Shown in pieces: positions 11,185-35,600 of a stretch of DNA of 64,000 bases. The translations under genes were made by a program, and so were the position numbers. The DNA is taken from the NCBI GenBank assembly GCA_043805415.1, contig JAZDHZ010000034.1, forward strand, positions 101,478 to 165,477, in the 5' to 3' direction. Below the pieces are notes generated by a model. The model was given only the letters and a program-made list of their open reading frames with translations. It made no database searches and was not told the DNA's origin. Source of the stretch: Candidatus Omnitrophota bacterium (GTDB lineage: Bacteria > Omnitrophota > Gorgyraeia > B26-G9). Position 1 is the stretch's first letter. Each line of letters begins with the position of its first letter.

Positions 11185-11185
11185 T

Positions 11186-15142: not shown

Positions 15143-15196
15143 ACTTAGGTTTGTTTTTGTTTGCATTCCGCGCTAGAACTATTTATAATAGTAAAC

Positions 15197-15937: not shown

Positions 15938-16038
15938 ATTTAAATCCGCGGGAACTTTTTGTTTAAAAATTTGTCTAACTATATACAGAGGAAATGAGCC
16001 GGATTAAGGTCAGAGTTTAAGAATTAAAGGAGGCAAAG

Positions 16039-17487
16039 ATGAAGAAAATTCTGGTTTTATTAAGCTTTTGTTTATTGGTTAATCTGAACGCGAATGCGAT
16101 TGCTTTGGCTGGCGAAGAGACAAGCACGGCTTTAGATCAAAAACAAGTGGCGATTACGATTTACAATAATAACCTGGGCTTAGTTAAAGATGTGCGGGAG
16201 ATTAAATTAAGTTCCGGCGTGCATGATCTGAAATTCATGGATGTGGCCAGTCAAATCAGGCCGGTGACAGTGAATATAAAATCATTATCCGCGCCGGATA
16301 AACTCTCTGTGCTTGAGCAGAATTATGAATATGATCTATTGAACGCGCAAAAACTTTTGGATAAATATGTGGGCAAACAGGTAAAACTATTGGATAAAAA
16401 TTATTATACCGGTAAAGAAGAAATAGTAACCGCCGAGCTTTTAAGTAATAATGGTTCGCCAATATACAAAATTAATAATGAGATCCAGGTTAATCCTTTG
16501 GGCCGGATAATTCTCCCGGAGATTCCGGATAACTTAATTGCCAAGCCCACGCTGATCTGGATGTTGAAAAACAGCAATCCCAAGCAGCAGGATATTGAAG
16601 CCTCGTATTTGACTAATGGGATTAACTGGAAGGCTGACTATATCGCGGTGATTAATCAGGATAATACAATCGCGGATTTAAGCGGCTGGGTTACGATTGA
16701 GAATAATAGCGGAGCAACATATAAAAATGCTCAGATAAAACTGGTTGCCGGAGATGTAAACCGGGTGCAGGAAGATCGGGGTTATGCTGGCCGGGCAAAG
16801 GCAAGCAGGATGATGGAACAAGACGCGGTGAAAAGCTTTGCCGAAGAAGCGTTTTTCGAATATCATTTATATACATTGCAAAGACAATCGACAATTAAAG
16901 ATAATCAAACCAAGCAGCTCGAATTATTAAAAGCAATGGATATTCCGATCAATGAAAAATTGATTTATTATGGAGCGGATTATTATTTCCGCAACCAGTA
17001 TACCGGACAGGCGCAGTCAAAGGAAAAAATCGGGGTGTTTTTGGAAATTGAAAATAAGCAGAAAAATAATTTAGGCATGCCGCTTCCGGCCGGAGTTATC
17101 CGCGCTTATAAAAAAGATAAAGAAGGCAGTCTGCAATTTATCGGAGAAGATAAAATCGATCATACTCCTAAAGATGAGAAAATCACAATTAAAATGGGCG
17201 ATGCTTTTGATGTAGTTGGAGAAAGAAAACAGCTGGAGTATCGGATTCTTTCAAAAAACGCCGCGCAGCGTTTTGATACAGAGCAGCAATGGCAGATCAA
17301 GCTGCGCAATCACAAGGAAAAACCAGTGGAAGTGGAAGTTGTTGAGCCGATTCCCGGAGACTGGCAAATAGTTAATGCTTCGGAAAAATATATTAAAACC
17401 GAAGCCAATACCATTAAATTTGTGGTAAAATTAAATAAAGATGAAGAAAAAACAATTGATTATCAAGTAAAAATCAGATACTGGTAA
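16039..17487 (+). CDS. DUF4139 domain protein (MuiA-like), secreted
   Basis: Signal peptide 'LVNLNANAIALA'. 'VAITIYNNNLGLVKDVREI' and the overall beta-rich layout match my recollection of DUF4140/DUF4139. GGAGG Shine-Dalgarno sequence. Confidence 0.7.
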   Translation: MKKILVLLSFCLLVNLNANAIALAGEETSTALDQKQVAITIYNNNLGLVKDVREIKLSSGVHDLKFMDVASQIRPVTVNIKSLSAPDKLSVLEQNYEYDLLNAQKLLDKYVGKQVKLLDKNYYTGKEEIVTAELLSNNGSPIYKINNEIQVNPLGRIILPEIPDNLIAKPTLIWMLKNSNPKQQDIEASYLTNGINWKADYIAVINQDNTIADLSGWVTIENNSGATYKNAQIKLVAGDVNRVQEDRGYAGRAKASRMMEQDAVKSFAEEAFFEYHLYTLQRQSTIKDNQTKQLELLKAMDIPINEKLIYYGADYYFRNQYTGQAQSKEKIGVFLEIENKQKNNLGMPLPAGVIRAYKKDKEGSLQFIGEDKIDHTPKDEKITIKMGDAFDVVGERKQLEYRILSKNAAQRFDTEQQWQIKLRNHKEKPVEVEVVEPIPGDWQIVNASEKYIKTEANTIKFVVKLNKDEEKTIDYQVKIRYW

Positions 17488-17590
17488 GAAAACGTAGGGC
17501 CACGGCGTGACGTGGCCGTATCATTAACCATAATTATTATATCCGTACCCACCATATATTGTGTTTAAAAAGTTTTTTTTAGCAAATATG

Positions 17591-17619
17591 TTGCATATAT
17601 TGCGTTAATCTGATATAAT
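17591..17619 (+). promoter_or_regulatory. extended -10 promoter for smc
   Basis: TTGCAT (17591-96), 17-nt spacer, TGa TATAAT (17614-19). Confidence 0.6.
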
Positions 17620-17668
17620 TTTTCCATGCAAGGGATTGCCCCTGCTTAAGATAATATAGGGATATAAA

Positions 17669-20600
17669 ATGTATTTTAAAAAGCTCGAACTCTTTGGATT
17701 TAAATCTTTCGTTGATAAAACAACTCTTATTTTTGAACCAGGCGTAACCGCGATTGTTGGCCCCAATGGTACAGGAAAAAGTAATATTTCTGACGCGATT
17801 AAATGGGTATTGGGAGAACAAAGTGCCAAGTCTATGCGTGGGGCAAAGATGGAAGATGTTATTTTTAATGGCACAGAAACCCGCCCTCCGGTAAATATGT
17901 CAGAAGTTTCGCTGACGCTTTCTAATGAAGAAAGAGTTTTGGCGATTGATTATGATGAAGTAACTGTAACCAGAAGGCTTTATCGCTCAGGAGAAAGTGA
18001 GTATCTTCTTAATAAAACCCCGGTTAGGTTAAGAGATATAAATGAACTATTAATGGGCACTGGCATAGGCACGGAATCGTATTCTTTGCTCGAGCAGGGC
18101 CGGATTGACGCGATTATTAGTTCCAAGCCGGAAGAACGCAGAGTGGTGTTTGAAGAAGCCAGCGGCATTACCAGATATAAGAAACAAAAAAATGAGGCAA
18201 TGCGCAAGCTGCAGGCAACAGAAGAAAACCTTTTACGGGTTAATGATATAATTGTAGAGGTTAATCGTCAGTTAAATTCCATAGCGCGTCAGGTAAGTAA
18301 AGCGCGCCGCTTTCAGGAAAATTTTGATGAACTTAAAACATTAGATACGCAGTATACATACCTTCAATATAAACAGCTTAAGGAAAAAAATGATTTACTT
18401 GCCAGTGAAGAGACTGCTTTTCATGCTGAGCAGGCGGGATTAGAAAAAGAGCTTGCTGTTTTTTCTGAAGAGTTTGACGCCTTAAAAGTAACCCTTTCTG
18501 AAGTGGAACATAATTACAGTCACTTGAACAATCAATTTGTCAGGACTACTTCGCAGATTGAGCAGAATGTTCACGCTGTGTCCATTAATAATGAACGCAT
18601 CCAGGAATTCAGCCAAAGAGTGCGGGATTATAACCGCGATCTGGAAAACTCCCAAAAGAAAATCAAAGAACTGCAGGAGCAGATAAACCAACTGCAAATC
18701 CGGATTTCCGCTTTTTCCGACGAGAAAAGCGCGAAAGAACTTAATTTAAATTTACGCCAGACAACAATCGCGGAAATTGAAAACCAAATAAAACTCGCGC
18801 AAAAATCCGGAGAAGAAAACCGGATCGTGGCGGTAAAATTACTCAGTGAACACGCGCAGATTAAAAATGAACTGGCCAAGCTTTCGGCGAATATCAGCAA
18901 TGCTAACGCGCGCTTATTGCGGCTTAATCAGGAAAAAGCGAAAACTAATCAGGAACGCGAGAAGATTGACGCGGAATTAAAAAGCAAAATAGCGGAAGTT
19001 GAAAATTTAAGAGGTAAGGTTAATAAAGAAGAAGGCGACGCTCAGAATCTTAAAAATAATTATGAAGAGCTTAATACTCAGATAAAAGAGCTGGAAGTAA
19101 ATATCCAAGACAGCAAGCAAGCTTTAGTCGGCTGTAAATCCCAGCTGGAAATGCTGGAAAGATTGAGCAAGGAATACGAATGGTTTTCCAGCTCAGTGAA
19201 ATCATTTATGCTCCAAAAAGAAAACTATCCCGAAGCTTTTGCCGGAGTCCATGATGTACTGGTAAATCTTATGGAGGTAAAGCCGGGATATGAAGTTTGC
19301 GTGGAAACCGCGCTAGCCGAATACTTGCAGGCCGTTGTTGTTGATAGCCGACAAGTGGCTTTAAGGCTGAGAGAATTTCTTAATCAGCATAATATCGGCA
19401 GAATTCGGTTTATTACTCTGGATTCAATTCCGCAAATAGCTAATCAGCAGTCTCAGATTGAAAATACAAAGAATTTTTTAGAAGTAATTACCTGCGATGA
19501 TAAATACGCGAAAGTTTTAGCGTTTCTGGTTAAGAACACTTTTATTTTACAAGAAAATATTTTTGACAATCCGTCAAATCCTTTGACTAATATCAAAGAT
19601 ACGCTGAGTGCTGAGCCAGATGCTTCTGGCTTGCTTGAAGCTGAGCTTTTGTTTTCTTTTAAAACAAACGCGGCCAATAGCGTTAAAATAGTCGGCGATT
19701 TTAATCGATGGAATGCTTCTTTTGACAGTGATCTGGAACGCAAAGACACGGAGCTTTGGCAAAAGGTTCTAAAGCTCGCGCCAGGACGCTATACTTATAA
19801 GCTGGTGGTTGATGGCCAATGGATCATTGACCCGAACAATCCGCTTAAAGAAATAGATGTAAACGGACATGAAAACTCAGTTATCGAAGTGCTGGCAAAA
19901 TCCCAGGATGCTTTGGTTGCTGAGGCTGATAAGCCGGCGGCATTTGATTTTAATTTTCTGGAAACGCTGGTGAGTATGAGCGGCGAGCTGCATTCAACCG
20001 CGGGATTAATCAGCCGGCCGGTTGCTGACCAGACAACAGGCCTGTTTTATCAAAAAGCAAAAATAAGGCAGCTTAAGCAGGAAAGTGTCGGCCTGGAACA
20101 AGCCGTAGTTAAATATAAACAAGAAATCGACACTAAAATCCAGCAGCTTAAGTTTGTGGAAACAGAATTTACTCAATTAAATGATGCTTTGCACGAAGAA
20201 AAGATTAGTCTGGCGAATCGGGACTCGGAAAAATCCAGTATTGAAATAAACCGGAAAAAACTTGTGGATGAGCTTTTAGTCATTGATCTGGAAATTGATG
20301 AAACAACTCTTGATGTTCAGGAGTTTGAAGAAAAAGAAGCGGCTAAGAGAGCTAGGCTGAGCATTGTGGATCAGGAAATAGTCGGCAATGAACAGACAAT
20401 GGCAAGTAATCATCAATTGATCGGGATAAAAAACAAGGAGCGGGAAGAGCTTTTAGTTATTATCGCGGAAATGAAAACAGAATTTTCTTTGCTCAATGAA
20501 CAGGAAGAATCTTTAAATCAGAGTTTTTCAATGCTGTATAATACGCTCAAAGAATTAACCCTGAACTCGGAAGAATTTGTCCGGTATAAGGATGAGAGTA

Positions 20601-21625
20601 TAAAGCGGATCGAGGCGCTGACGATTCAGGTAAGTGAACTGAATAAATCCACGCTTGTCCTTGAGCAGGAAAAAGAAGAAATCGGCATGTCTTTAGAAGA
20701 ATTTAAAGAAAAACGCGGTCAATTATTAAGTAAATTTGAAGATATCCAGAATAAAATAAAAGAAAAAGAAAACCGATTAAATTATACCAAGAATCGGATT
20801 CGCGATATTGATGTTAAAAAAGTCGAGATGAATTTTAAAACCGAGTCATTGGTAAATTCAGCGAGGCAGGCTTATAAAATCGAACTGGAAACCCTGGAAC
20901 TTGAATTGCCGGAAGATATAGACTGGCAGGCGCGGAAAGAACAGATCGATGGTTTAAAAAATAAGATTGACCGGATTGGGGCAGTTAATCTGGCGGCAGT
21001 AGAAGAAGAGGAAGAATTAAGACAGCGCGCTGACTTTCTTAATAGTCAAAGCGAGGATTTGTTCGCGGCTAAGCAGACATTAATGCAGGCAATCCAAAAA
21101 ATCAACCGCACAACTAAAGCGCTTTTTCTCGAGACTTTTGAGAAATCAAAAATCGCTTTTAAAGAGTATTTCAAGCTTTTATTCAGCGGCGGCGACGCGC
21201 AGCTTCTGCTTACCGAGGGAAAAGATGTTTTAGAATGCGGGGTGGAAATCGTGGTGCGGCCTCCAGGCAAAAGACTGCAAAGCATAACCCTGCTTTCCGG
21301 AGGCGAGAAAACGCTTACGGCAATTGCCTTATTGTTCGCGATTTTTAAGATTAAGCCAACACCGTTTTGCGTATTAGATGAAATGGATGCCCCCTTAGAC
21401 GAATCGAATATTGATCGGTTCACCCGGGTTTTACAGGAATTTTTGAAAAGCTCACAATTCATAATTATTACCCATAATAAAAAGACTATTTCCATGGCGG
21501 ATGTTATGTATGGGGTAACAATGGAGCAGCCGGGTATTTCTCGGCTGGTGAGTGTGAAATTCAGCGAATTTAAAGACTCGGATAAATTAAAACAAGAGCT
21601 TATTCCTGAAGAAGCTATAATCTAG
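17669..21625 (+). CDS. smc: chromosome partition protein Smc, with an inserted CBM48-like module in the hinge
   Basis: N-terminal 'LELFGFKSF...IVGPNGTGKSNISDAIKWVLGEQS', signature 'LSGGEKTLTAIALLFAI', Walker B 'FCVLDEMDAPLD', and long coiled coils. Confidence 0.95.
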   Translation: MYFKKLELFGFKSFVDKTTLIFEPGVTAIVGPNGTGKSNISDAIKWVLGEQSAKSMRGAKMEDVIFNGTETRPPVNMSEVSLTLSNEERVLAIDYDEVTVTRRLYRSGESEYLLNKTPVRLRDINELLMGTGIGTESYSLLEQGRIDAIISSKPEERRVVFEEASGITRYKKQKNEAMRKLQATEENLLRVNDIIVEVNRQLNSIARQVSKARRFQENFDELKTLDTQYTYLQYKQLKEKNDLLASEETAFHAEQAGLEKELAVFSEEFDALKVTLSEVEHNYSHLNNQFVRTTSQIEQNVHAVSINNERIQEFSQRVRDYNRDLENSQKKIKELQEQINQLQIRISAFSDEKSAKELNLNLRQTTIAEIENQIKLAQKSGEENRIVAVKLLSEHAQIKNELAKLSANISNANARLLRLNQEKAKTNQEREKIDAELKSKIAEVENLRGKVNKEEGDAQNLKNNYEELNTQIKELEVNIQDSKQALVGCKSQLEMLERLSKEYEWFSSSVKSFMLQKENYPEAFAGVHDVLVNLMEVKPGYEVCVETALAEYLQAVVVDSRQVALRLREFLNQHNIGRIRFITLDSIPQIANQQSQIENTKNFLEVITCDDKYAKVLAFLVKNTFILQENIFDNPSNPLTNIKDTLSAEPDASGLLEAELLFSFKTNAANSVKIVGDFNRWNASFDSDLERKDTELWQKVLKLAPGRYTYKLVVDGQWIIDPNNPLKEIDVNGHENSVIEVLAKSQDALVAEADKPAAFDFNFLETLVSMSGELHSTAGLISRPVADQTTGLFYQKAKIRQLKQESVGLEQAVVKYKQEIDTKIQQLKFVETEFTQLNDALHEEKISLANRDSEKSSIEINRKKLVDELLVIDLEIDETTLDVQEFEEKEAAKRARLSIVDQEIVGNEQTMASNHQLIGIKNKEREELLVIIAEMKTEFSLLNEQEESLNQSFSMLYNTLKELTLNSEEFVRYKDESIKRIEALTIQVSELNKSTLVLEQEKEEIGMSLEEFKEKRGQLLSKFEDIQNKIKEKENRLNYTKNRIRDIDVKKVEMNFKTESLVNSARQAYKIELETLELELPEDIDWQARKEQIDGLKNKIDRIGAVNLAAVEEEEELRQRADFLNSQSEDLFAAKQTLMQAIQKINRTTKALFLETFEKSKIAFKEYFKLLFSGGDAQLLLTEGKDVLECGVEIVVRPPGKRLQSITLLSGGEKTLTAIALLFAIFKIKPTPFCVLDEMDAPLDESNIDRFTRVLQEFLKSSQFIIITHNKKTISMADVMYGVTMEQPGISRLVSVKFSEFKDSDKLKQELIPEEAII
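19646..19891 (+). other. AMPK-beta/CBM48-type glycogen-binding module inserted in the SMC hinge
   Basis: 'FSFKTNAANSVKIVGDFNRWN...ELWQKVLKLAPGRYTYKLVVDGQWIIDPNNP' follows the CBM48 pattern (V.l.GsFn.W...W...L.pG.Y.YKf.VDG.W..DP). Confidence 0.7.
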
Positions 21626-22851: not shown

Positions 22852-23060
22852 TGTATAATTAGTGTCTTTAGTTTGTCAATCTCTTAGTTAGAAAATCGAT
22901 TAACTGAAATTAAGCTTTAAACTATTAAAAAAGAATAATTTAAATTTTCGCTTAAACTGTGTAAAATGTAAGCAGGTCAAGGCAGTTTATGCCCGGGCTG
23001 ATAAAGGAATCAATCTTAAGATCATAAGCTGGTTTAACTTTGTTTTGATTGGGGGAATGA

Positions 23061-24440
23061 GTGGTTAAGAAAAAAATAAATTCAGCAGGCATAATATGCG
23101 TGGTTTTTGTATTTCTCGCTTTACTTTTTGCTGCTTCTGGTTTTTGTGAGACTGAAGCGGAGTTTAAAGCTTTGATAAAAGAGTATGAGCAGAAATACGC
23201 TTATGATCCTTATGATGAAAATATTAAAAAACAATTAAGCGTTTTATATCATAATTACGCGATGGAGCTGGCTAATGAGGGTTTATGGGATGAAGCGATA
23301 GAACATGAAAAAAGAGCATTGGATATTGAGCCGGAGATCGCGAGCATAAAGAATGCTCTGGCGTATATGTACAATTGCCGGGGTTTGGAGCGGAAAGACG
23401 AAGGCTTGTATGATAAAGCGATTAGCGATTTAAAATCAGCGATAGAGTATAGCCCAGAAGAGCTGGTGCTTAAAAAAAATATCGCGGCAATTTATTTGGG
23501 CTGGGCTTATCAGTTTTTTGAAAACAATGAATATTCCAATGCTGAACGGATGCTGCTTCAGGTGCAGCATTATGATGATCAGAATCCATATCTCTATGTT
23601 GTCAGGGGAGACATTGCTTATACCCGGGATAGCTATTTTGCTACGCGTGATAATTGGCAGAAAGCTTTAAAGTTAAATCCCAGCCTTTATCAGGTTAGGA
23701 TGAAGCTGGAAAAACTGGAAAAGGAACAGGATGTGGAGAGAAATTTTAGTGTTCGGGAATTTGAGAACTTTAAATTAAAATTTGAAGGCATTGCCAGTGA
23801 GGGCTTAGCGGATAAAGCGGCGGAAATATTAAGAAATGCTTATAAGCAAGTGGGTAAAGACTTTGATCTTTATCCTCGGGCAACTGTTCCGGTTATTATT
23901 TATCCTTTTGTTAAGCTGAAAAAACTCGATTATTTTCCAGATTGGGCAGCTGGTACCTATGACGGGAAAATCAGGTTTGGCGAAGATTTAGGCAAAGACC
24001 CATTGCTGATGCAGGGAGTTTTATATCATGAATATACGCATGTTATTGTCAGGATGCTGGGCGGGGATAATGTTCCGCTCTGGTTAAATGAAGGCTTAGC
24101 GGAATATGAGGCAAAACAATTTAAAACCGCGCTTGTCAATAAATCAAGAAAAGAATTAATATCCAAGGCCATTGAAAAAGGAACAATCTTCCCTTTAGAT
24201 AAATTAGGAACAATGGATTTAAGTAAATTATCCTATCTTGCTCCGCACAGGATCGAGCTGGTTTATGCCCAGTCCGAGGCTTTTGTCCAGTATATTATTA
24301 ATCGCTCATCGCTTTATGACATAAAAAAGCTTTTGCAGGAGCTGGGCAAAGGCACGAATATTTATAAAGCGGTTAAAGATGTGCTGTATGTTGAAGTAGA
24401 GGTTTTGGAAAGAGACTGGAAAAATGAATATCAAAAATAA
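23061..24440 (+). CDS. TPR-repeat protein with C-terminal peptidase-MA-like HExxH domain
   Basis: GTG start, N-terminal TM/signal segment, TPR-like repeats, 'LYHEYTHVIV' plus 'LNEGLAEYEA'. Confidence 0.7.
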   Translation: MVKKKINSAGIICVVFVFLALLFAASGFCETEAEFKALIKEYEQKYAYDPYDENIKKQLSVLYHNYAMELANEGLWDEAIEHEKRALDIEPEIASIKNALAYMYNCRGLERKDEGLYDKAISDLKSAIEYSPEELVLKKNIAAIYLGWAYQFFENNEYSNAERMLLQVQHYDDQNPYLYVVRGDIAYTRDSYFATRDNWQKALKLNPSLYQVRMKLEKLEKEQDVERNFSVREFENFKLKFEGIASEGLADKAAEILRNAYKQVGKDFDLYPRATVPVIIYPFVKLKKLDYFPDWAAGTYDGKIRFGEDLGKDPLLMQGVLYHEYTHVIVRMLGGDNVPLWLNEGLAEYEAKQFKTALVNKSRKELISKAIEKGTIFPLDKLGTMDLSKLSYLAPHRIELVYAQSEAFVQYIINRSSLYDIKKLLQELGKGTNIYKAVKDVLYVEVEVLERDWKNEYQK

Positions 24441-25853: not shown

Positions 25854-25939
25854 GCGGGGATGGTGGAATGGCAGACACGCTAGCTTGAGGGGCTAGTGGG
25901 AGCAATCTCGTGAGGGTTCAAATCCCTCTCTCCGCACCA
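25854..25939 (+). tRNA. tRNA-Leu (anticodon GAG), type II with long variable arm, CCA encoded
   Basis: Manual fold: acceptor GCGGGGA/UCUCCGC, D stem GUG/CAC, anticodon stem CUAGC/GCUAG, loop UUGAGGG, 15-nt variable arm, T arm GAGGG-UUCAAAU-CCCUC, ACCA. Confidence 0.9.
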
Positions 25940-25966
25940 AAAAACTCCTGAAATGGAGTTTTTTTG
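25940..25966 (+). terminator. intrinsic terminator after tRNA-Leu
   Basis: AAAAACUCC-UGAAAU-GGAGUUUUUUU hairpin plus U tract. Confidence 0.7.
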
Positions 25967-26023
25967 CTATTTATGATGATTTTTTCCTCGAAGCAAGTTT
26001 TTTTAAAAAATTCTTTGCCAGCC

Positions 26024-26052
26024 TTGTAATTTAAAAAAACCTATGGTATACT
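26024..26052 (+). promoter_or_regulatory. extended -10 promoter for the 26245 gene
   Basis: TTGTAA (26024-29), 17-nt spacer, TGg TATACT (26047-52). Confidence 0.6.
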
Positions 26053-26110
26053 TGCACTCCGTTGTAGCTGAATCTCAATATGTAACTATTAGTTAAAATG
26101 AAATATTAAG

Positions 26111-26193
26111 GGAATGCGAAGTTGAAACGTTCTTATTTATTAAGGCGTTTACGAAGACCCCTACTTCCCCCGTTCTTCGCATTCCTTTTTTTT
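26111..26193 (+). promoter_or_regulatory. structured 5'-leader element, copy 1 (long hairpin, C-rich internal loop, U8)
   Basis: GGAAUGCGAAG (26111-21) pairs perfectly with CUUCGCAUUCC (26175-85). Inner CUUA-N5-UAAGG hairpin, unpaired CCCCUACUUCCCC, then U8 (26186-93). Lies between the promoter and ATG 26245. Confidence 0.65.
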
Positions 26194-26244
26194 ATTTGTT
26201 TGAGATCTAACACATTTAAACCAAAGTATTTATCCAGATAAGCT

Positions 26245-27012
26245 ATGAAAAATCCGCTGCATAACAAAATAATCTGTATGGTTTGCTTATTTATTGCAAT
26301 CAGCAATACTGCTTTACCGGTTTTTGCTTTGAATAATCCGGAATCAAGCCGAAAATATTGCCTTTCCCCGTTTTTACGTATAATCAATTCTGATTTTCAA
26401 TCCAGATTTGAGAGTCTAAACTCTGACTTATTAGACAATAATTTAAACATGCCAGGGGATCTGAAAAGCCGCGCGCTGGTAGTTGGCAGGACAAGCATAA
26501 TTTTTAATAACAAAGAAATGAGCTTTTTTGAATTAACAAAAAGCCTAAACCTTTTACTTGCCAATGATCGATTTACTTACTTTGCCAGAATTGAAAAAGA
26601 TATGGTTAAATATGCGGCATTAAGCACTGTAGAGCAGCTTTTACTTGCTTTAAAGCAGTCAGAATTATCAGAATATGCTGAGCAAATTGATATTATTCTG
26701 GCAATTTTGCATCTTTCCGCTGAAGACGCGGCAATTATCCTTAGCGGCATTGAACCTTTGCAGCAAAAATCAATTACTAATCTTACTGATAAGGCCTGGA
26801 CGAATAAATTCAGAATGAAACGATTCAGCTTAACCATGGGCTATGAGCTTGATATTGCTAAAGCTTGGTATGTTAAAACATTGGAAACAGAGGCTGAGGA
26901 AAGACAGTGGTGGCATGCTATGTGCCGCAATTCAATGCCTATGAATATGTTTAAGGGTTTGAATGCTGATTTGCAGAAAAAAAATCATGGCTTAATTGAT
27001 GCTTCAATTTAA
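26245..27012 (+). CDS. terminal-signature family protein, function unknown
   Basis: Leader 'IICMVCLFIAISNTALPVFA', N-box 'CLSPFLRIINSDFQSRF', tail 'DASI-stop'. Confidence 0.7.
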   Translation: MKNPLHNKIICMVCLFIAISNTALPVFALNNPESSRKYCLSPFLRIINSDFQSRFESLNSDLLDNNLNMPGDLKSRALVVGRTSIIFNNKEMSFFELTKSLNLLLANDRFTYFARIEKDMVKYAALSTVEQLLLALKQSELSEYAEQIDIILAILHLSAEDAAIILSGIEPLQQKSITNLTDKAWTNKFRMKRFSLTMGYELDIAKAWYVKTLETEAEERQWWHAMCRNSMPMNMFKGLNADLQKKNHGLIDASI

Positions 27013-27045
27013 TTCTATTCATGGCTTAAAAAAATCCTCTGAACA

Positions 27046-27074
27046 TTGAAATTCCTGGAATAATATGGTATAAT
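27046..27074 (+). promoter_or_regulatory. extended -10 promoter for the 27275 gene
   Basis: TTGAAA (27046-51), 17-nt spacer, TGg TATAAT (27069-74). Confidence 0.6.
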
Positions 27075-27176
27075 TCTAATGAAGTAAGGAAGTTATGGAA
27101 AAACGGGGGTTTTGGGGCTTTTTTATCGTCTAAAATTAAACAATTTTAAAAAGTAATTTAAAACTATATGTAAAAT

Positions 27177-27258
27177 AGGGATACGAAGACCAGAATCGCC
27201 TTATCCCCTAAGGTGATTATTGGCCCCTACTTCCCCTGTCTTCGTATCCCTATTTTTT
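27177..27258 (+). promoter_or_regulatory. structured 5'-leader element, copy 2
   Basis: AGGGAUACGAAGAC (27177-90) pairs perfectly with GUCUUCGUAUCCCU (27238-51). Inner 14-bp hairpin 27190-27223 with apical CCUUA-UCCCC-UAAGG, unpaired CCCCUACUUCCCCU, then U6. The AAGGAAGG ribosome-binding site follows at 27263-70. Confidence 0.65.
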
Positions 27259-27274
27259 AAAAAGGAAGGTTTAA

Positions 27275-28969
27275 ATGCATTGTATTTTTTTAAAAAACTT
27301 AGCAAGAGGATTGTTAGTTAATACTGGTTTGCTTGGTTTGCTGGTATTAGCGCAGCTGGTATTACCAGCAAGTTATTTGCACGCGCAGCAAAGCACTAGT
27401 TTTCTCAGCACCAAGATAGAAACATTGGAAGGCCCGAAGCTAAAGAAAACCGCCAAAGTAGAGCAAGTACTGAGGAACCTGGATATTCCCGCGGAATTAG
27501 GGTTTATTAAAGAAATCCACGTGCCCAAGACTCCGACAGAAAAAATGATCATCAATATCCAGGATCTGCATTGTAATTATAAAGCCCAGAAAAACATAGC
27601 CGGCATACTTGAATATTTAACCCAGACCTATGGCTTAAAACTAATCAGCGTAGAAGGCGGATCCGGGAAAATTGATACCAGTTTTTATCAGGATTTACCG
27701 GATGAAAAAATCAAAGAACAAGTCGCGGATTATTTTTTACGCGAAGCCAGAATAAACGGCACAGAATACTTTGCCATTACCACTGATCGGTTGATCCGCT
27801 TATATGGAGCGGAAGATGAAAAATACTATGATAAAAACCTGGACGCGTTTATGCGGGCCCTGCCGGCAAGGGAAATTATTCTGGAGACAATCGCTGTATT
27901 AGAAAATGATCTGAACATTCTAAAAAACAAAAGCTATAATAAAAAGCTCAGAGAACTTGATGATCATATCGTGGCCTATGACAATGGAGAAATGGGATTT
28001 GAAGACTATATCCAATACATATCCAGATTATCCGCGGAACAAAACGTAAAGCAGGAATTTGACCAGGTAAACCAGCTGGTAGAAAGCATTAAATTCAAAG
28101 ACTCGATAAGCATAGAAAAAGCCGAAGCCCAGAGAAAAGAACTGATTGATCATCTGACCAGTAATTTGTCTCGATACGAGATGGAAGAATTTTTAAAAGC
28201 AACCGTAGAATATAAAGCAAAAACCATGGACAATCTGACCTATCACAGCACCTTGCAGAAACTATACAATCAAATGGATAAAAAGAGCCTGACTTTAGAT
28301 CGGAAATGGCCGGATTTAAATGGATACATTGAATACTTAAAAAGACATGAGACCTTGGATAAATTCGCTTTATTTACCCAGATCGACAAACTAGTGGAAC
28401 GGATAAAAAACAGTTTATATACCAGCTATACGCAAAAGACATTAGATTATAATTTAAAGATCGTCAGACTAGCCAGAAGCTTATTTTCCACCAAGCTGCT
28501 GAATAAAGATCTAACTTTAGTCAGCAAATACCACACAGACTTTAATGCTAAAAAGATGAAGACATATATTCAAAAAGAAGCCAAGCGGTTAAAGCTTGAT
28601 TTAGCTATACCGGATGATGAGCGGTTAAAGCAAATGGAAGAGACTTTACCGGCAGTAGAAGATTTTTATCGCTATGCTTCGAAGCGCAATGATATCCTGG
28701 CCAATAATACTTTGGACGGCATGGCTAAAGAAAACGAAGACATCGGAATCCTGATCACCGGAGGATTTCATACTGATGGTATAACCGATTACTTAAAAGA
28801 CAAAAGAATAACTTATATTGTAATCGTGCCCAAGATCGAAGAGCTGGAAACAGATGATACCCGCTATATTAATGCTTTGCAGGGCAAGAAAACGCCGTTT
28901 GAGGAAATGATTGAAAAAGAAGATAAATCAGCAGTAACTCCAGAAACTGCTGATTCAGCAACCCCTTGA
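27275..28969 (+). CDS. secreted hypothetical protein (possible Tiki/TraB/ChaN-like fold)
   Basis: Signal-like 'LLVNTGLLGLLVLAQLVLPASYLHA' and a weak N-box 'SFLSTKIETL', but the tail 'DSATP' is not the family tail. 'IINIQDLHCNY...ISVEGG' and 'ILITGGFHTDG' weakly recall GxxH-type Tiki/ChaN motifs. Confidence 0.65.
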   Translation: MHCIFLKNLARGLLVNTGLLGLLVLAQLVLPASYLHAQQSTSFLSTKIETLEGPKLKKTAKVEQVLRNLDIPAELGFIKEIHVPKTPTEKMIINIQDLHCNYKAQKNIAGILEYLTQTYGLKLISVEGGSGKIDTSFYQDLPDEKIKEQVADYFLREARINGTEYFAITTDRLIRLYGAEDEKYYDKNLDAFMRALPAREIILETIAVLENDLNILKNKSYNKKLRELDDHIVAYDNGEMGFEDYIQYISRLSAEQNVKQEFDQVNQLVESIKFKDSISIEKAEAQRKELIDHLTSNLSRYEMEEFLKATVEYKAKTMDNLTYHSTLQKLYNQMDKKSLTLDRKWPDLNGYIEYLKRHETLDKFALFTQIDKLVERIKNSLYTSYTQKTLDYNLKIVRLARSLFSTKLLNKDLTLVSKYHTDFNAKKMKTYIQKEAKRLKLDLAIPDDERLKQMEETLPAVEDFYRYASKRNDILANNTLDGMAKENEDIGILITGGFHTDGITDYLKDKRITYIVIVPKIEELETDDTRYINALQGKKTPFEEMIEKEDKSAVTPETADSATP

Positions 28970-29064
28970 TTTATTTTTTAAGGCTTATGAATATATCTTT
29001 ATATTTAGCAGTAAGTTAAGCGTTTTAAGCTAAAGAGTAAATACTGGCGGGAAATTTAATAATG

Positions 29065-29073
29065 TGGTATAAT
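29065..29073 (+). promoter_or_regulatory. extended -10 element upstream of the 29258 gene
   Basis: TGgTATAAT. No good -35 at 17-nt spacing. A second TATAAT lies at 29096-29101. Confidence 0.45.
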
Positions 29074-29257
29074 TTACCAGCTTTTTTACGGTTTTATAAT
29101 AGTGCAAGTAATTGAATATTAAAAATTAACAGCATTTTATTGCTGAAATAGTGATTATTTTATATTGCTACTTGTAGTGATTCTAAAAAAAAATAGAATG
29201 ACGAAAAGGTAGTGATTTATTCATTTTTATTTATTTACTTACCAAAAGCAAGGGAAA

Positions 29258-32200
29258 ATGAATTATAAACAGAAATCAAAATTCAGGCTGATATTTAGAG
29301 TCATTGCCAGCGTGCTTTTACAGGCATTTTTATTTACAAATTTTGCCTGGTGCGGTGCTGATCAGTTTATTCAAGGCAATACTGTTTGCGCGCCGGCAAT
29401 TAGCAGTACAACTATTTCTCCCGCGATCCAAGTCACTGAAGCTTCAATTCAAACTCTTTTTGTTCAATCCGCCGCGTTCCAAATGGGCAAAAGAGCAGAG
29501 TTTAAAGGCCTTGATTCTTTAAAGCAGGCAGAAGTGGAAAATGCTTTAGGCGATAAATTTAGTTTAAGCCTGAATCTAAAAGGAAAGCTAAACACCGCGT
29601 CAGTTATTCAAAATATCGAAAAAAGAACAGATATCAAAGCGGATTATAAGAAGATCCTAAACGCGATGATCCTTGAATTCGGCAAACTGGATGTTAAGTT
29701 CTATTCATATGAGACATTAGTTGAGGACTTGTTCGGGTTTGCTTCTGCTGGCAATAAGATGATCGCGATTCATTCCTCGGTATTCAGTAATCCGATTGCT
29801 CAGACGCATGAAATCGGGGAATTCTTAGCGCAAGCAGGAATGCTGAATTTTTCGCTTGGCCAGGATGACCAGCTATTGATCAGCTTAAATGGCAGTTTAA
29901 TCGGCAGGATAAAATTATCGGAAGATGCTTTGGCAATCGCGAAGAAAGATCCGTCCAGTAACCATTATTTGCTGCGGGCTTTTCAACGGGAGGTTTTTCA
30001 GGATAAGGATCGGGCTTTAACCGCTGGGATTAAAAACAAGCAGGGGGATTTATCTTCCGCGATGAAAATTTTTCTTAAAACCATAAATGCTGAGACTGGA
30101 AACAAAGTTGAAGCAAGTATGTCTTTGTCTAAACTTAATGACCCGATGTTCGAGGCGCTGTTTAAAGATATTGAGTTTAATCGGTTTTCCGAAAACGATG
30201 CGGCAAAATTAAAGATAGCGATACTATTGCAGAATAACATTGCTATTGAGCCTATTGCTGAACCCTTGCTTCAAGAGTGCGGGATGCTGAATAAGGAATC
30301 CGCTGATCTTTATGAAACCATATTCCCGGCTGCGGGAACTCCTGGTTTTAGCCCAAAAAAATTATTCGCGAAAGAAAATGTTAATCCGGATAATCTGCAT
30401 CTTATCTTTGAATTAGCTAAGCGCTATAGTCCGATTAAAGCGTTTAGCGATAAGTTAGACAGAATCTACCGCGAGCTTGCCTTATACACATTGCCGGTAA
30501 GTCCGGGAGCAAGATATCATATATCTTTGCTTAAAGATCTAAACAGTATTTTATTGTCCGGAGGACGGATTAAAGAATCAAAGCACTCGCTTAGCGGTCA
30601 GGGTGTTTATTTCTTTGAAATGGGAAATTCCGGCTTAGTCAATGCGCAGACACGCTTAGCTGAGTTTTTCCCTTTTATCTCCAGCTCGCCGCATGATCTG
30701 GCAGATGCGGATTATGTGGTTAAGGCGTTCAGGCAAAAGATTGCCCGAGACGCGAAAGATAATGCCCGGATATTCCCGGTTGTAATCCAGGTTGCTGAGG
30801 ATATCCCGGCTGAAGCTGCGATGGGCTGGGCTTTTCGTGAGGATTATAAAAAGGCGGGAAAGCTTATCCGCGATGAACTTAATGCCCAAGAGTATGAATT
30901 TTTAATCAACCTGAATTATTTATATCTTAGCGAGAACCAAGCGGTTAAAAACCATTTGCTCGCGAAAAATATTATTAGAGAAGAAAACGGGATAATCAGG
31001 CTGGTTGATGCTTCGCGGGCGATTCAGGATGAAAACAAAAAGAATACGGGTTGGGCCAGAATGAGATTTGCTGACTTGCGTTATGAAGTGATCAATCTTT
31101 CCTACACAAAGCTGGATAGTGATATCCAGAAGCTTAGCGCCAAGATGGCTCAATTACTCCAGAATCTTCTCGCTGATAAAATGAGCGTATCTTCGGTTGT
31201 GGATACAGGCTCATCAAATCGCGGGCTTACTGTGGAAAATCCGGATTTTGATTTTCTGATTAAAATTAATTCCCCAGAGGATTTTACGGCAATTGTTAAG
31301 CTGCTGCTTGATGAAAAAATATTAGAAAATTTTCTCAAGGAGCATAAAGCTGCTTTTGAAGCGATCTATGGCGATAAGTCCGTGAGTATTGTCACCGAAC
31401 AGCCGCATGCCGTAGGCAAAGGCAATTTATATTTGTTTCCGTTTAAATTTGTCGCGGCTAACCGGATTGTCGGCGGGGTTGATTTTAATTTTTCCAAGCT
31501 TTCAGCGGGAAAAGCCGAGACTTTGAGCTATCACGAGACAGCGCGGCAGCAGCTGCAAGCCATACTGGATAAAGTTCCCGAAGCAGAACAAAAACAGCTT
31601 TCCCGCTATCTTGCCGGAGAAATTAAAACCCTTAAAAAATTAATTATAAATCAGGGTTTATATAAAGATAAGGATACAAAACGAAATAGATTTATCGGCG
31701 TGGCAGTAGAACAAATGATCTACAATCTCAGCGATTATCTGTCTATGCCAAGCAATATTTCCACTGCTGAAATTAAGAGCATATTTTCAATAAAAACCGC
31801 GCTTTATTTAATCAGCCGGATGGAAAGCGAAAGATTAAATGGTCTGTCATTTTCTCTGTATCAAAGAGCAAATGGAAGCGGGTTTTCTAATCAATCGGTA
31901 AAATACGATTTAAGGGATAATGAAAAATCAGTTATCCCTAAAGTTGGGACGGCTTTTGCCGGTTTTAAAGAGTTTTCAGAAGCGGAAAATGCCGGAGTGA
32001 AAAATAAAATTAAAGGATTAATAACTGATTTTATTAGCCGGCCGGGGAATAAGGTAAAAATTATTGAGTTTTTTGCCAGGTACAATAATGAAGTTGACGC
32101 GGCGATTGCTTTAGGTCAGGCGAAACCTTTTAGTAACTGGGAATTTTTTGAAAGATGGGAATTCACGCACCGGTTTTTTACTCTGCATAAAACAGAGATT

Positions 32201-32560
32201 GATATATTCGCGATAGATAAGACTGATATGTCTCAGGACGCGAAGCTGAAAATAGCGGAAATGATCAACGGATTAAAAGCCGGGATAACTGAGTCAATGG
32301 GTGTGAGTGAAGATAAAATTACCGGTCGGGAAATCACGCGGTGGTTTAAAACTCCTTCTTCGCGGAATAAGCAGCTGAGAGATTTTTATTTTCAATATGG
32401 GGCAATAACAGCAGAACCTATATCCATCCTGGGTTTTGCTGGGTTTTTAATGAATATTCCGGCATTGCGTTCGGCAGCTGATGCTGAGCGAAAAGCGGCG
32501 CCTTTAAGCGGTATTATAAACCGCAAGCCGCTCGAACAATTAGTCGGACAGTCAATATGA
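29258..32560 (+). CDS. terminal-signature family protein with PARP-like ADP-ribosyltransferase motif and Pol-beta-type nucleotidyltransferase motif
   Basis: Leader 'MNYKQKSKFRLIFRVIASVLLQAFLFTNFAWC', N-box 'TISPAIQVTEASIQTLF', tail 'GQSI-stop'. Internal 'YHIS..LNSILLSGGRI...SGQGVYFFEM' and 'DTGSSNRGLTVENPDFDFLI'. Confidence 0.85.
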   Translation: MNYKQKSKFRLIFRVIASVLLQAFLFTNFAWCGADQFIQGNTVCAPAISSTTISPAIQVTEASIQTLFVQSAAFQMGKRAEFKGLDSLKQAEVENALGDKFSLSLNLKGKLNTASVIQNIEKRTDIKADYKKILNAMILEFGKLDVKFYSYETLVEDLFGFASAGNKMIAIHSSVFSNPIAQTHEIGEFLAQAGMLNFSLGQDDQLLISLNGSLIGRIKLSEDALAIAKKDPSSNHYLLRAFQREVFQDKDRALTAGIKNKQGDLSSAMKIFLKTINAETGNKVEASMSLSKLNDPMFEALFKDIEFNRFSENDAAKLKIAILLQNNIAIEPIAEPLLQECGMLNKESADLYETIFPAAGTPGFSPKKLFAKENVNPDNLHLIFELAKRYSPIKAFSDKLDRIYRELALYTLPVSPGARYHISLLKDLNSILLSGGRIKESKHSLSGQGVYFFEMGNSGLVNAQTRLAEFFPFISSSPHDLADADYVVKAFRQKIARDAKDNARIFPVVIQVAEDIPAEAAMGWAFREDYKKAGKLIRDELNAQEYEFLINLNYLYLSENQAVKNHLLAKNIIREENGIIRLVDASRAIQDENKKNTGWARMRFADLRYEVINLSYTKLDSDIQKLSAKMAQLLQNLLADKMSVSSVVDTGSSNRGLTVENPDFDFLIKINSPEDFTAIVKLLLDEKILENFLKEHKAAFEAIYGDKSVSIVTEQPHAVGKGNLYLFPFKFVAANRIVGGVDFNFSKLSAGKAETLSYHETARQQLQAILDKVPEAEQKQLSRYLAGEIKTLKKLIINQGLYKDKDTKRNRFIGVAVEQMIYNLSDYLSMPSNISTAEIKSIFSIKTALYLISRMESERLNGLSFSLYQRANGSGFSNQSVKYDLRDNEKSVIPKVGTAFAGFKEFSEAENAGVKNKIKGLITDFISRPGNKVKIIEFFARYNNEVDAAIALGQAKPFSNWEFFERWEFTHRFFTLHKTEIDIFAIDKTDMSQDAKLKIAEMINGLKAGITESMGVSEDKITGREITRWFKTPSSRNKQLRDFYFQYGAITAEPISILGFAGFLMNIPALRSAADAERKAAPLSGIINRKPLEQLVGQSI
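30509..30640 (+). other. PARP/H-Y-E-clade ADP-ribosyltransferase-like signature
   Basis: 'ARYHISLLKDLNSILLSGGRIKESKHSLSGQGVYFFEMGNS' parallels the PARP1 sequence '[20 protein letters not shown]...GKGIYFADMVSKS'. This is pattern recall, not a search. Confidence 0.4.
31190..31265 (+). other. Pol-beta superfamily nucleotidyltransferase signature (GS-x9-12-DxD)
   Basis: 'VVDTGSSNRGLTVENPDFDFLIK'. Confidence 0.45.
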
Positions 32561-32602
32561 ATATTCTCTAGGGCAATATGATTGGGTAAATGGAACAAGA
32601 TA

Positions 32603-35600
32603 ATGAATTATAAAAAATCAAAATTCAGGCTAATCTTTAGAATAATCTCATTAGTGCTTATCCAGGCATTTCTGGTGCTTGATTTTGCCTGGGCAATAGG
32701 CGGAGAATTTCCTATTGCTGATAAAATTTCTCAGGCTGCTACGCTTGCCCCGAAAATTAGTTTAAACACTCAGGAAGTCTGGGATGCTTATGTTTACAGT
32801 TCGCAAAATTCAGCTAAGATCAATGAACTTTCCTTACCTTCTGATCAGCCGATGGTTAATATTCCCAACCAATCTCCCCTGATCAGCCGGAGAGCGTTTT
32901 TCAAAACTGTTGGGCAAAAGGTTATTGGGGCTGCCGCGGTATTAACCGGAGCGGATCTGATATTGTCGGCGCCGGCAGAAGCCAGAGACTTAACCGTGGC
33001 TTTAAGCGATTTAGTGATCAATTTTGATAAAGGGGTTGCTGAAGCGGAGTTAAATAAATATATCGCGATTATTGAAGCTCAGGGTTTTAAAGAGTTATAC
33101 AGTTTAGAAAAAAAACAAGCGCAGACATTAATCAGAATTAAGGGGTTATTCCCGCTGAACGCGGAAAAATTATCTTACGCGCTTAATGCTCAGGCTAAAG
33201 CCAGAGGTCTGGCCAAAGGGTTTGTGGTCACAGCTAGTGACGCGAGCTGGAAGCAATCGCTTACTTATCGGAGCATGCAGGCTTTTGCGAATAAAGTAGC
33301 GCGTCTTTCAGCCAGCCTGGGATTCGGGGAGATCGATTCTCCGCAGCTTATTGGGCTTTATGAGGGGATTACCTGGGTTGAGAGTAAATTTAACCAATGG
33401 GAAACCGATGCCCAGGGCAGAATCAGACCAGTAAGGTCATATACCAATGCTATCGGAGTTACCCAGGTTATAGAATCTCAGGCTGTTAAGCAGATTGCCA
33501 GGTGGATAGTAACGCATAAGGGTGGAATATCCCGCTACGCGGAAATCATGAATGAGCTGGAAAGAATGATTTCCTCTGATAGTGAAAAGCTAAAGAAATC
33601 ACTCAAGGCGAATAAGAAATTCGGGGAAGAAGCCGAAGCCCTGAAACAGTTTAATGTCTATGCTGATTTCGCGGCTTATAAAAATGCCGGATCAGATATT
33701 GAAAAACAAAAACAGATAATTCAACGAATTCACAGAAAGATCAATAGTAATCCTAAGCTTATCGGCGTGAATTTATATTACGCGCTTGCTGTTTGGCAGT
33801 ATTTACAAAACAGGAATAATCTGCGAGCGGGAGTTACCGCTGAGCTTGCCGAATCAATGGGGCAAACCGGACAAGGGCTGACCAGAAAAAATCTTCCGCT
33901 TATTGAATCCGGTTCCGGGGCATATCAGCCAATGGATCTGGAAAAAGCCGGCTTGCAGTTTGAGAGTGATTATTTCCGCTTAAATCTGCTTTATCAAATG
34001 ATTAATCCCGAGAAGATTGCTGAGCTTTTGCAAGGCGCGGAAAGTAAAATATTAGTCAACACCATGGAATACTTATCGCGGCAGATGATGACAAAAATAG
34101 GCAACCAAAAGCTTGGCTATACTTATCTTACGCTGAACTGGGATCGATACCGCCGCCTGGAACTAAGGAAAAATAAAAATAATCAATATGAGTTTACCGA
34201 AAGGCCTTTAAGTTATTTTCAAAATAAGCCTAATGGTTTTTCCGTGAGTCTTGCCGCGGCAGCTTCATATAATTCCGGGACTGGCAGTGTGGACGATGCT
34301 TTGCTGAATTTTGGTAATGCCGTAGACGCGAATAATCTTCCCTTATGGATTAAAAATATGATCGGAGCCAATCCCCAAAATATTCGGGAGCCGATAAATT
34401 ATTTAAGGGTTTTTCTGGAAGATAAGTTTAATAATACCGGAGATCTCTCGGCCCAAGAGCAAAAAATTAAAAACGAGCTTATTGCCGAACGCTATAAACG
34501 CGTTTATAAAATCCAAGACCGATTGCTGGAAAAAAGAGCTTTAATCCACAAAAACAAGGTTCGGATATACGCGGCTTATCGGCGCGATGATGGTTTTGAT
34601 TATAAGCTGGCTGCCTGGGTTGCCCAGATCGCGGGCAGTGATTATGTGGATAGTTTTTTAAGAACCCATGGATTGGATAAAAAATGGCAAGAGGAAATTC
34701 TTAAATCTTCCCAGACACTTGATATTTTAGCACCGGCTTTGGCAGATGTGAATTCGCCGGGATATGCTGCCGCGGTAAATATCCGGCGGTATTTAGATTC
34801 AAAACAGCTGGCTTCTTTGGCTAAGCGGCAAGAAGCCTTTAAGTCTAAAGAACAGGCCCGGATCGCGAGAATTGAACTGGCTAAACAAATATCTAAGGAA
34901 AAACAATGGCAGAAAACCCTGGAGGGAATGACCAGCTGGGCAATGCGTTCCACGGTCGGGGTTGCTTCGCTTGGCGCGGCCGGCGCGATTGCCTGGATTA
35001 TAAACCGCAGGGTCAAGCTGGGTAAAAAACCAGTGCCTTCGCTTATCTATCGGCTGCCATTGCAGGGTTTTTGGATTCTGGGATTTGTTACTGTCCGGCT
35101 GTTCGCGATAGTTGGAAAAATTCTGTTTGGAACCGGTAAATATGTATTCAGCTTTTTTGCTAAAGCAAAACCGCGGATAAATAAACCAAGAAGCGCGCTT
35201 CTTGCCGATCAAAAGGTAGTTAGAAATAACCGGGTTAAACAAGCGGAAAACAGATATAAAAATAAGAACCGCTTTTTTTCAATAGCTAATTTAAAAAAAC
35301 TGATTCTGGGATCAATCTTACTGGCAATAATTGCCTGGCCTTTTGCTTCCCCGGCTTTTTCTCACGCGTCGCAAAAGCAGGCACAAGCTCCTCCGGCAAT
35401 TAGTTTAAGCCAAGAATTTAAAAAAGGCTTAATTGAAATCAGTAAGAAAAGTGACCATAAGCAGCTGAATGCTCAGGGCGAGCTTACCACAATAAAAGCT
35501 AATTTAAAAAAGAATCTTGAATTCAGCAATAGCAAAGCCCGGGAAAGGGTAGAGCAGATCAATCAGTTAGCGGAAAGAAATTGGCAAAAAGCGTATGTTA

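Follow-up and report, generated by a model that had tools for sequence, protein, structure and literature searches.

The 64,000-nt stretch analyzed here (the window; positions 101,478 to 165,477 of the forward strand of contig JAZDHZ010000034.1, Candidatus Omnitrophota bacterium, assembly GCA_043805415.1) raises the question of what two similar hairpins, each standing between a promoter and a gene, are for. The initial annotation had proposed a new cis-acting attenuator or riboswitch-like leader, or else a pair of ~135-180-nt small RNAs (sRNAs). We found that the two hairpins belong to a conserved and hitherto undescribed RNA family found in one Omnitrophota clade. One copy (type A) looks like a free sRNA and the other (type B) like a module within the leader of a gene for a 564-aa protein. 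Both display an unpaired C-rich run, the C-box, and the type B leader also carries a complementary G-rich run, the G-box.

Both copies follow one plan (coordinates are those of the window and, unless marked otherwise, of its + strand): an outer stem, P1, encloses an inner hairpin, P2, and the unpaired C-box, CCCCUACUUCCCC. The type A module spans 26108-26193; in its P1, GGAAUGCGAAG at 26111-26121 pairs with CUUCGCAUUCC at 26175-26185, and U8 follows at 26186-26193. The type B module spans 27172-27258, and AGGGAUACGAAGAC (27177-27190) pairs with GUCUUCGUAUCCCU (27238-27251), followed by A and U6 (27253-27258). A repeat search gave longer arms for both copies. In type A the 5' arm covers 26108-26121, and the 3' arm (26175-26188) overlaps the U8 tract, arm and tract together (26175-26193) making up a predicted intrinsic terminator. 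In type B there is a perfect, 100% complementary inverted repeat of 19 nt, 27172-27190 with 27238-27256, and the 3' arm with its U6 covers 27238-27258.

The P2 hairpins lie at 26126-26149 in type A (AACG/CGUU plus UCUUA/UAAGG, with a variable loop) and at 27194-27218 in type B, and both contain CUUA-N5-UAAGG (26132-26145 and 27200-27213). The C-box 13-mer is identical at 26158-26170 and 27224-27236, and no other exact copy occurs in the 64 kb. Every coordinate, stem pairing and U-tract that the initial annotation gave for the two copies checked out, and the inner hairpins, the shared unpaired 13-mer and a second ACGAAGA at 26151-26157, which it had seen as a competitor for the 3' arm of P1, are all present. 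The two outer stems differ at two positions and both differences are compensated, as it had claimed.

Folding energies were -26.9 kcal/mol for copy 1 and -36.9 kcal/mol for copy 2, corresponding to z-scores of -4.5 and -8.0 against dinucleotide shuffles, and the copies share 80% identity over 129 columns. Hence, given these z-scores, the identity of the copies and their syntenic recurrence in many other genomes, the two-copy signal is beyond chance.

In both types P1 and P2 are separated by an asymmetric internal loop, whose long 3' strand consists of the C-box and 3-9 flanking nt. Its CCCC and CCCC(C) runs are unpaired in the minimum free energy (MFE) folds and in the RNAalifold consensus. 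Type B adds a third C-run, since its P2 apical loop, AUCCCCU, with UCCCC at 27204-27208, is invariant, unlike that of type A.

The protein encoded downstream of type B (564 aa; 27275-28969) shows 100% identity to one from a Candidatus Omnitrophota metagenome assembly and has 84 homologues, nearly all from Omnitrophota. Five loci (L001, L005, L006, L007 and L008) were fetched through homologues of this protein at 84-65% identity, independently of the RNA sequence. Both elements were found in all five, in the same order and orientation, and the 13-mer was unchanged in 10/10 elements. A pattern scan of genome and metagenome collections returned 24 true loci and 9 chance hits, the latter being about the expected number; the scan needed the exact 13-mer, TAAG and CTYCG, so that their invariance in scan-derived loci is by construction. 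Removal of duplicates left 21 type A and 20 type B sequences (41 in total, from ~25 Omnitrophota loci). The order in homologous loci is peptidase gene, radical-SAM gene, tRNA-Leu gene, type A, type B and 564-aa gene. Covariance-model searches, including searches with filters off, found no more distant members upstream of 564-aa homologues at 59%, 41% and 31% identity (L009, L010, L044 and L045), nor in L003. These comparisons indicate a real family with one pair per genome, which appears confined to one Omnitrophota clade.

Both stems covary. The RNAalifold consensus has a P1 of 12-13 bp and a P2 of 8-9 bp in the two types. In type A, the 12 pairs of P1 (5 with double changes) are formed in 99.6% of cells and the 9 pairs of P2 in 96%; in type B, P1 has 13 pairs (4 with double changes) and P2 has 8 (3 with double changes), the latter 100% paired. 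Over all pairs, standard pairing reached 98.2% of cells in type A and 99.5% in type B, and sliding the partners by 1-3 columns as a control lowered it to 45-53% and 36-46%, respectively. Six pairs in type A and seven in type B are changed on both sides, and 0/500 shuffles attained the observed covariation score for either type. Hence, the compensation argument made from two copies is upheld by 41 sequences.

The alignments also hold 25 (type A) and 34 (type B) G·U cells, which become A·C mismatches when the opposite strand is read, and pairing then drops to 92.5% and 91.4%. Hence, the fold belongs to an RNA of the + strand and is not a DNA palindrome. Corroborating this result, a type B covariance model run on the window found only the two copies and scored them at 106.5 (copy 2) and 52.8 bits (copy 1) on the + strand, compared with 37.3 and 21.9 bits on the - strand. 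The model gave no extra matches, and all 41 elements have the same orientation relative to their flanking genes. With two copies in 64 kb, fixed synteny and none dispersed or in both orientations, the elements do not behave like a repeat of the repetitive extragenic palindrome (REP) or miniature inverted-repeat transposable element (MITE) kind, the possibility against which the initial annotation had wanted them checked.

Neither copy matches a known family. Scanning 4227 Rfam models (cmscan), we found no match to either copy at the gathering threshold over the whole window, nor at E up to 10 for 25900-27400, where the best sub-threshold hits, rli60 and mir-240, are unrelated chance matches far below the cut-offs; this agrees with a new element, as had been suggested. 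A literature search found neither the C-box motif nor a description of a regulatory RNA from Omnitrophota.

The two copies differ in their transcription units. Type A usually lies downstream of the gene for tRNA-Leu(GAG), found at 25854-25939 in the window by ARAGORN and Rfam; the 3' end of tRNA-Leu also stands upstream of type A in L005, L006, L014, L016, L024, L034 and L039. A promoter scan found the type A promoter at 26024-26052 (TTGTAA, a 17-nt spacer and an extended -10, TG-n-TATACT). The motif cTTGtAA..N17..TGGTATACTT recurs upstream of type A in 20 of the 21 loci, and the consensus, TTGYAA-N17-TGGTATACT, stands 13-96 nt (typically 45-70 nt) before the module. From promoter and terminator, the predicted type A sRNA of the window is ~135 nt long (26059-26193), with a variable 5' part (26059-26107) ahead of the P1/P2/C-box module and U8. 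Predicted orthologues measure 93-172 nt; in their 5' parts, 13-96 nt long, we found neither sequence conservation nor a conserved structure.

A run of at least five U follows P1 in 18 of the 21 type A copies, and a fresh extended -10 promoter (TGnTATAMT) lies between type A and the next gene in 17 of the 21 loci. In eight distinct loci (among them L008, L014, L015, L016, L021, L024 and L025), type A and type B are in tandem with no gene between them. The conserved promoter, the U-run, the fresh downstream promoter and the eight loci without a gene before type B all argue that type A is a stand-alone sRNA gene and not a leader.

Only the window, L005, L021 and L028 have a stretch without a new promoter between the type A terminator and the next coding sequence. 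In the window and L005, the start of a 255-aa gene (26245-27012) comes ~50 nt after the type A U-tract with no recognizable promoter between, and only in these two could type A double as an attenuator of that gene. The 255-aa protein has a signal peptide and no Pfam or NCBIfam match. Its gene occupies a variable slot between the two RNAs, filled by other genes or by none in other genomes, and a homologue of it stands there only in L005.

Type B is arranged differently. Its promoter, at 27046-27074 (TTGAAA, 17 nt, TG-n-TATAAT; 11/12 matches), is conserved as TTGAAA-N17-TGGTATAAT ~120 nt upstream of the module, and the scan thus found both of the promoters proposed in the initial annotation, each with an extended -10 TG. 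The module ends 15-40 nt before the Shine-Dalgarno (SD) sequence or start of the 564-aa gene, a homologue of which lies directly downstream in 16 loci. This gap is too short for a promoter, and none was found there in any locus. In the window, the SD AAGGAAGG with its ATG (27262-27277) stands 19-24 nt after P1. A further box, UUUUAAAAAG (27144-27153), lies between the G-box and P1 in nearly all type B leaders and may pair with the U-run. The extended -10 region of the type B promoter, AATAATRTGGTATAATT (27059-27075), is nearly repeated at 29058-29074, upstream of a gene for an 1100-aa protein, with no third RNA module after it. TGGTATAMT, which recurs at most promoters of these loci, appears to be the strong promoter consensus of the clade.

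At least five U follow P1 in 7 of the 20 type B copies and are absent in 13. In copies without the U-run, the A/U-rich extension of P1 is often changed on both sides, as in L006 (UUAAUU/AAUUAA) and L026 (UUU/AAA). Since the U-run is found in only 7/20, type B is best described as a 5'-untranslated region (UTR) module of the 564-aa gene (a ~195-nt 5' UTR) and not as a conserved terminator.

These architectures divide the proposals made for the locus. Termination by each copy before its coding sequence agrees with the U-tract after both copies in the window and after 18/21 type A copies, but not with the type B copies, of which only 7/20 have one. A cis-acting leader describes copy 2, ahead of the 564-aa gene, but not copy 1, after which a new promoter follows in 17/21 loci; conversely, an sRNA of the proposed size fits copy 1 (~135 nt) but not copy 2, which is the 5'-UTR module.

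The 564-aa protein has an N-terminal hydrophobic transmembrane or signal helix and no sequence match in Pfam, NCBIfam or PDB. It has an EreA/ChaN/TraB-like domain split by a helical insert; a Foldseek search gave a weak match (E = 0.06). Its gene heads a conserved block that encodes giant proteins with cNMP-binding and GGDEF domains and PilZ proteins. Genomes with an A/B pair can also carry a second paralogue of the 564-aa gene (L009 and L014 lie on one contig). The paralogue has a different leader, GAUGGGAGGGCGGGCG (L009 3900-3990, L010 3880-3960): it contains an ordinary terminator hairpin with a G-rich run as its 5' arm, then a U-run, and the SD directly after. In principle, the G-rich arm could be captured by a C-box RNA.

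The type B leader itself carries a conserved complement of the C-box. In the window, the G-box consists of GGGGGUUUUGGGG (27105-27117), a C and U6 (27119-27124). A bipartite G-box occurs in 17 of the 20 type B leaders as G5-11, N1-8 and G3-5, sometimes C, CUC or CUA, and then U5-9, ~35-45 nt past the -10 element and near the 5' end of the leader. Its layout fits the C4-N5-C5 of the C-box, and the predicted duplexes have energies of -22 to -28 kcal/mol in these 17 leaders. The paired sites end ~105 nt before the C-box in all 17, and among the 30-nt windows of the ±3 kb flanks, the G-box duplex outranks at least 99%.

This genome (40% G+C) has few G-runs; besides the G-box, the only intergenic ones that the window contains belong to tRNA, tmRNA and a G9 SD at 47460. 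This last one (47460-47472) places nine G directly before the ATG of a 138-aa open reading frame (ORF; 47470-47886) without a family match, an extreme G-only SD. In 250 kb of related loci, both strands included, non-coding sites at or below -20 kcal/mol were the G-boxes, the antisense of the element itself, tRNA and tmRNA, the initiation region of the window's peptidase gene, and one other.

The leader also folds in two ways. In whole-leader MFE folds, P1 forms in about half of the orthologues and the G-box:C-box duplex, with P1 open, in the rest. Hence, the two states are close in energy. Formed together, P1 and the G-box:C-box duplex make a pseudoknot, and RNAfold models one of them at a time. 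We found no support for a conserved 5' hairpin that presents the G-box: the first ~60 nt of 18 leaders fold weakly (-2.5 to -15 kcal/mol) and inconsistently. A leader peptide was also considered and dropped: a 12-codon ORF, MEKRGFWGFFIV (27095-27133), has a good SD (AAGGAAG) and overlaps the G-box, and its ATG is ATA or absent in L001, L005, L006 and L020.

Translation initiation regions were less consistent partners. The initial annotation had singled out CUUCC as complementary to the ribosome-binding site of the 564-aa gene; this pairing (CUUCC:GGAAG) reaches only -7.2 kcal/mol and ranks 17th among the 39 initiation regions in the window, and we rejected sequestration of the SD. The best partners among these regions are at 23061 (-20.2 kcal/mol) and 47470 (-19.2 kcal/mol). 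The former is the GTG of a Peptidase_MA_2/TPR gene, whose initiation region (23040-23065, UUGGGGGAAUGAGUG) agrees with the perfect complement of the C-box at 11 of 14 positions. A similarly G-rich peptidase initiation region occurs in L016, L030 (GGGAAGUAGAUG) and L011 and is missing from five other orthologous loci. As it is G-rich in only 4/9 loci, we did not retain it as a conserved target, and the G-box is the sole conserved C-box partner among the predicted duplexes.

One metagenome-assembled genome (MAG), JAHITE01, serves as a natural control. Its A-B pair (L016) has no 564-aa gene downstream, the gene being on another contig (L003, L046 and L047), and its type B, which ends in U8, has a G-box decayed to GGG. 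Upstream of the relocated gene we noted an 11-nt perfect complement of the type B C-box. It lies inside a REPIN-like repeat that has relatives elsewhere, at the place where three assemblies break, and we did not count it as evidence; it may be a coincidence. The three independent assemblies break 56-167 nt upstream of the gene (L003/L046 1-125, L047 1-107). What they keep of the upstream DNA is an imperfect inverted repeat, GC-rich and with GTAG heads, GTAGGGGCCGTGCTTGCCTCGGCCC ... GGGCGCAGGCAAGCAGCGCCCCTAC, with a folding energy of -59 kcal/mol, and relatives of it, GGCAAGC..GCCCCTAC, occur in L029 and L041.

Taken together, these features suggest that the type A sRNA and the type B leader form a paralogous C-box module that works by base-pairing, with the G-box as the conserved partner, a reading to which we assign a probability of about 50%. 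Like the C-rich regions of RsaE/RoxS, the C-box would serve as a seed that pairs with G-rich RNA, and the bipartite G-box near the 5' end of the type B leader would be its principal conserved partner. In cis, a G-box:C-box duplex about isoenergetic with P1 could let the leader toggle between two forms, one closed by P1 and one with the boxes paired. In trans, the type A sRNA, with its identical C-box, would compete for the G-box and shift the state of the leader; it can compete with the cis interaction because its seed is the same as that of the leader's own module. Such a shift would affect termination at P1 (where a U-run exists), or the stability or translation of the 564-aa mRNA. The family, its structure and strandedness, the two architectures, the synteny and the complementary G-box are well supported, whereas pairing between the boxes, any direction of regulation and any further targets are inferred.

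Several points weigh against this reading. The 13-14 invariant nt and the near-invariant sequence of P1 would be equally expected of a protein-binding site. Part of the C-box invariance is by construction, and independent support for it comes only from the window and the five protein-anchored loci. The C-box never varies; hence, covariation cannot test its pairing with the G-box. P1 together with the G-box:C-box duplex would be a sterically awkward pseudoknot. L030 keeps type B with its G-box and has no adjacent type A, and type A has no G-box of its own. Other predicted C-box targets are not consistently conserved, as the peptidase site (4/9 loci) illustrates. Finally, the transcript ends, and even expression itself, are predicted from the promoter and terminator consensus.

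Protein binding is the alternative that survives best, although we consider it unlikely. In a titration system of the Csr/Rsm kind, the C-box (with the UCCCC loop of type B) would bind a protein that recognizes C-rich RNA; acting at the type B leader, this protein would regulate the 564-aa mRNA, with type A serving as its decoy. A single-stranded run of 13-14 nt and much of P1 are invariant while the neighboring proteins are only 57-84% identical, the motif is held on a rigid two-stem scaffold, and one mRNA leader and one free sRNA carry it, all of which would suit such a protein. However, we recognized no candidate RNA-binding protein in the conserved neighborhood, each RNA has 2-3 C-runs (and no GGA motifs) compared with the many repeats of known sponges, and a conserved, position-fixed G-box suited to the C-box would be left unexplained.

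A riboswitch-like sensor is a poorer prospect still. Here P1, P2 and the large asymmetric loop would be an aptamer, its ligand maybe a nucleotide messenger, competition between G-box and P1 would be the expression platform of type B, and type A would be a terminated sRNA that responds to the ligand. A 5'-UTR element with invariant unpaired nucleotides enclosed by covarying stems, an available alternative pairing, the overlap of P1 with a terminator in type A and some type B copies, and the cNMP_binding, GGDEF and PilZ domains of the genomic context are what such a sensor would show. Yet no known aptamer in Rfam matched at E up to 10, and each genome has the elements at one locus, tied to just one family of downstream genes and not to a metabolically related set. 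Type A terminates and a new promoter follows in 17/21 loci, where it would control nothing in cis, and with the terminator absent in 13/20 type B copies there is no consistent expression platform. In addition, the invariant segment is a pyrimidine run without conserved purines, as one would sooner expect in a pairing seed than in a binding pocket. We therefore did not uphold the riboswitch-like label of the initial annotation.

A more daring version of the pairing idea, which we regard as a long shot, is that the G-box and its U-run are the 3' half of an intrinsic terminator that lacks its own 5' arm, the C-rich arm being supplied in trans by type A or in cis by the leader's C-box. If this were true, the sRNA would complete the hairpin on the nascent transcript ~45-50 nt after its start and synthesis of the 564-aa mRNA would be aborted; more generally, a free sRNA and a leader-embedded paralogue competing for one G-box would be a molecular-mimicry switch. 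In work by Yarnell and Roberts from 1999, oligonucleotides that replaced the upstream arm of a terminator hairpin reportedly induced termination in vitro. We know of no description of termination by a supplied hairpin arm as a natural sRNA mechanism.

A purely structural role, with copy 1 as a terminator of the tRNA-Leu region or a leader hairpin and copy 2 as an mRNA-stabilizing 5' hairpin, or with both as a DNA repeat, is hardly credible: although P1 and the U-tract of type A make a textbook intrinsic terminator and both copies are intergenic, the tRNA-Leu gene has its own terminator (25939-25964) and the type A promoter lies after it, an invariant 13-nt bulge and a conserved P2 are superfluous for a terminator, and a plain terminator or repeat is excluded, as far as sequence can tell, by this promoter placement, by there being only two copies in 64 kb and none dispersed, by their constant orientation and synteny, and by the G·U pairs that make the fold strand-specific.

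Base-pairing by C-rich seeds has precedents. In RsaE/RoxS (RF01820), C-rich regions pair with G-rich sequences such as the SD (PMC4409812). The C-box RNAs resemble this family in having several unpaired runs of 4-5 C in loops, a C-rich motif duplicated within the RNA, and predicted pairing with G-rich RNA. Type A shares with it a free-standing form of ~100-150 nt with its own promoter and intrinsic terminator; an independent unit of this kind is predicted for type A only. However, the C-box RNAs have no homology to RsaE/RoxS (no RF01820 match at E up to 10) and belong to another phylum. Their C-runs form a single bipartite box of 13 nt within the internal loop that separates the two stems, one paralogue is built into an mRNA leader, and the partner with the best conservation is not an SD but a G-box, ~170 nt before the start codon.

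The activity of RoxS is reported to be modulated by a complementary sponge RNA, RosA, and by pairing at the 5' end of yflS mRNA (PMC8216469, PMC5419742). The likeness is that a C-rich regulator is governed by an RNA segment reserved for pairing with it (a sponge, or the very 5' end of an mRNA) and not by a ribosome-binding site. The difference is that in the Omnitrophota locus the complementary box shares its leader with a copy of the C-rich module, so that cis pairing is possible, and that the sequence points to no nuclease or sponge function.

Two further systems share single features with the locus. In the leaders of plasmids pT181 and pIP501/pAMβ1, an antisense RNA encoded opposite its target and fully complementary to it controls transcription attenuation. 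There, too, binding of a small RNA ahead of a U-run or terminator in the leader decides between folds, but the Omnitrophota sRNA is paralogous to a portion of the leader and encoded on the same strand, and its complementarity is a short bipartite G/C box. Listeria SreA and SreB exemplify trans-acting RNAs that derive from riboswitches or contain them; there, as here, one structured module is found both in a short terminated transcript and in the leader of an mRNA. The Omnitrophota module differs in having no identified ligand, aptamer family or association with metabolic genes. The family is thus, on present comparisons, a new one of a generally known kind, the sRNA with a C-rich seed, and its new twist is a paralogue together with a complementary box on one leader.

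The phylum Omnitrophota consists of ultra-small bacteria, presumed to depend on hosts, of which almost none have been cultivated. With 41 sequences, two covarying stems and defined promoters and terminators, the C-box family would be the first testable regulatory RNA for this phylum. The RNA pair heads a conserved block that includes a predicted secreted EreA/ChaN/TraB-like protein and giant cNMP-binding and GGDEF proteins. The layout is unusual, with one module present as a free sRNA and inside an mRNA leader that also bears the complementary box; if the boxes pair, it would be a compact natural case of competition between cis and trans RNA partners. Since the pieces are short, in vitro tests or E. 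coli reporter tests are feasible without culturing the organism.

Three further observations concern the surrounding DNA. In L030, the locus in which type A is missing, the tRNA-Leu 3' end, caagtccctctctccgcaccagtgaac, recurs ~150 nt downstream of the tRNA itself (530-780, - strand), a pattern that resembles the trace of an insertion or excision event there. A series of very large ORFs (1642, 1340, 1318, 1100 and 2986 aa; 6256-21625 and 29258-41542) has almost no recognizable domains; in the 2986-aa protein, matches to cNMP-binding, UPF0489 and, weakly, GGDEF domains were found. The tmRNA (46820-47252, 176 bits) has a ~77-nt insertion in its tag-coding region relative to the Rfam model, and the tag predicted by ARAGORN is unusually long, ALLERIGSGIAHPTFTGFVPAAVLL (25 aa); an upstream in-frame GCU would lengthen it further.

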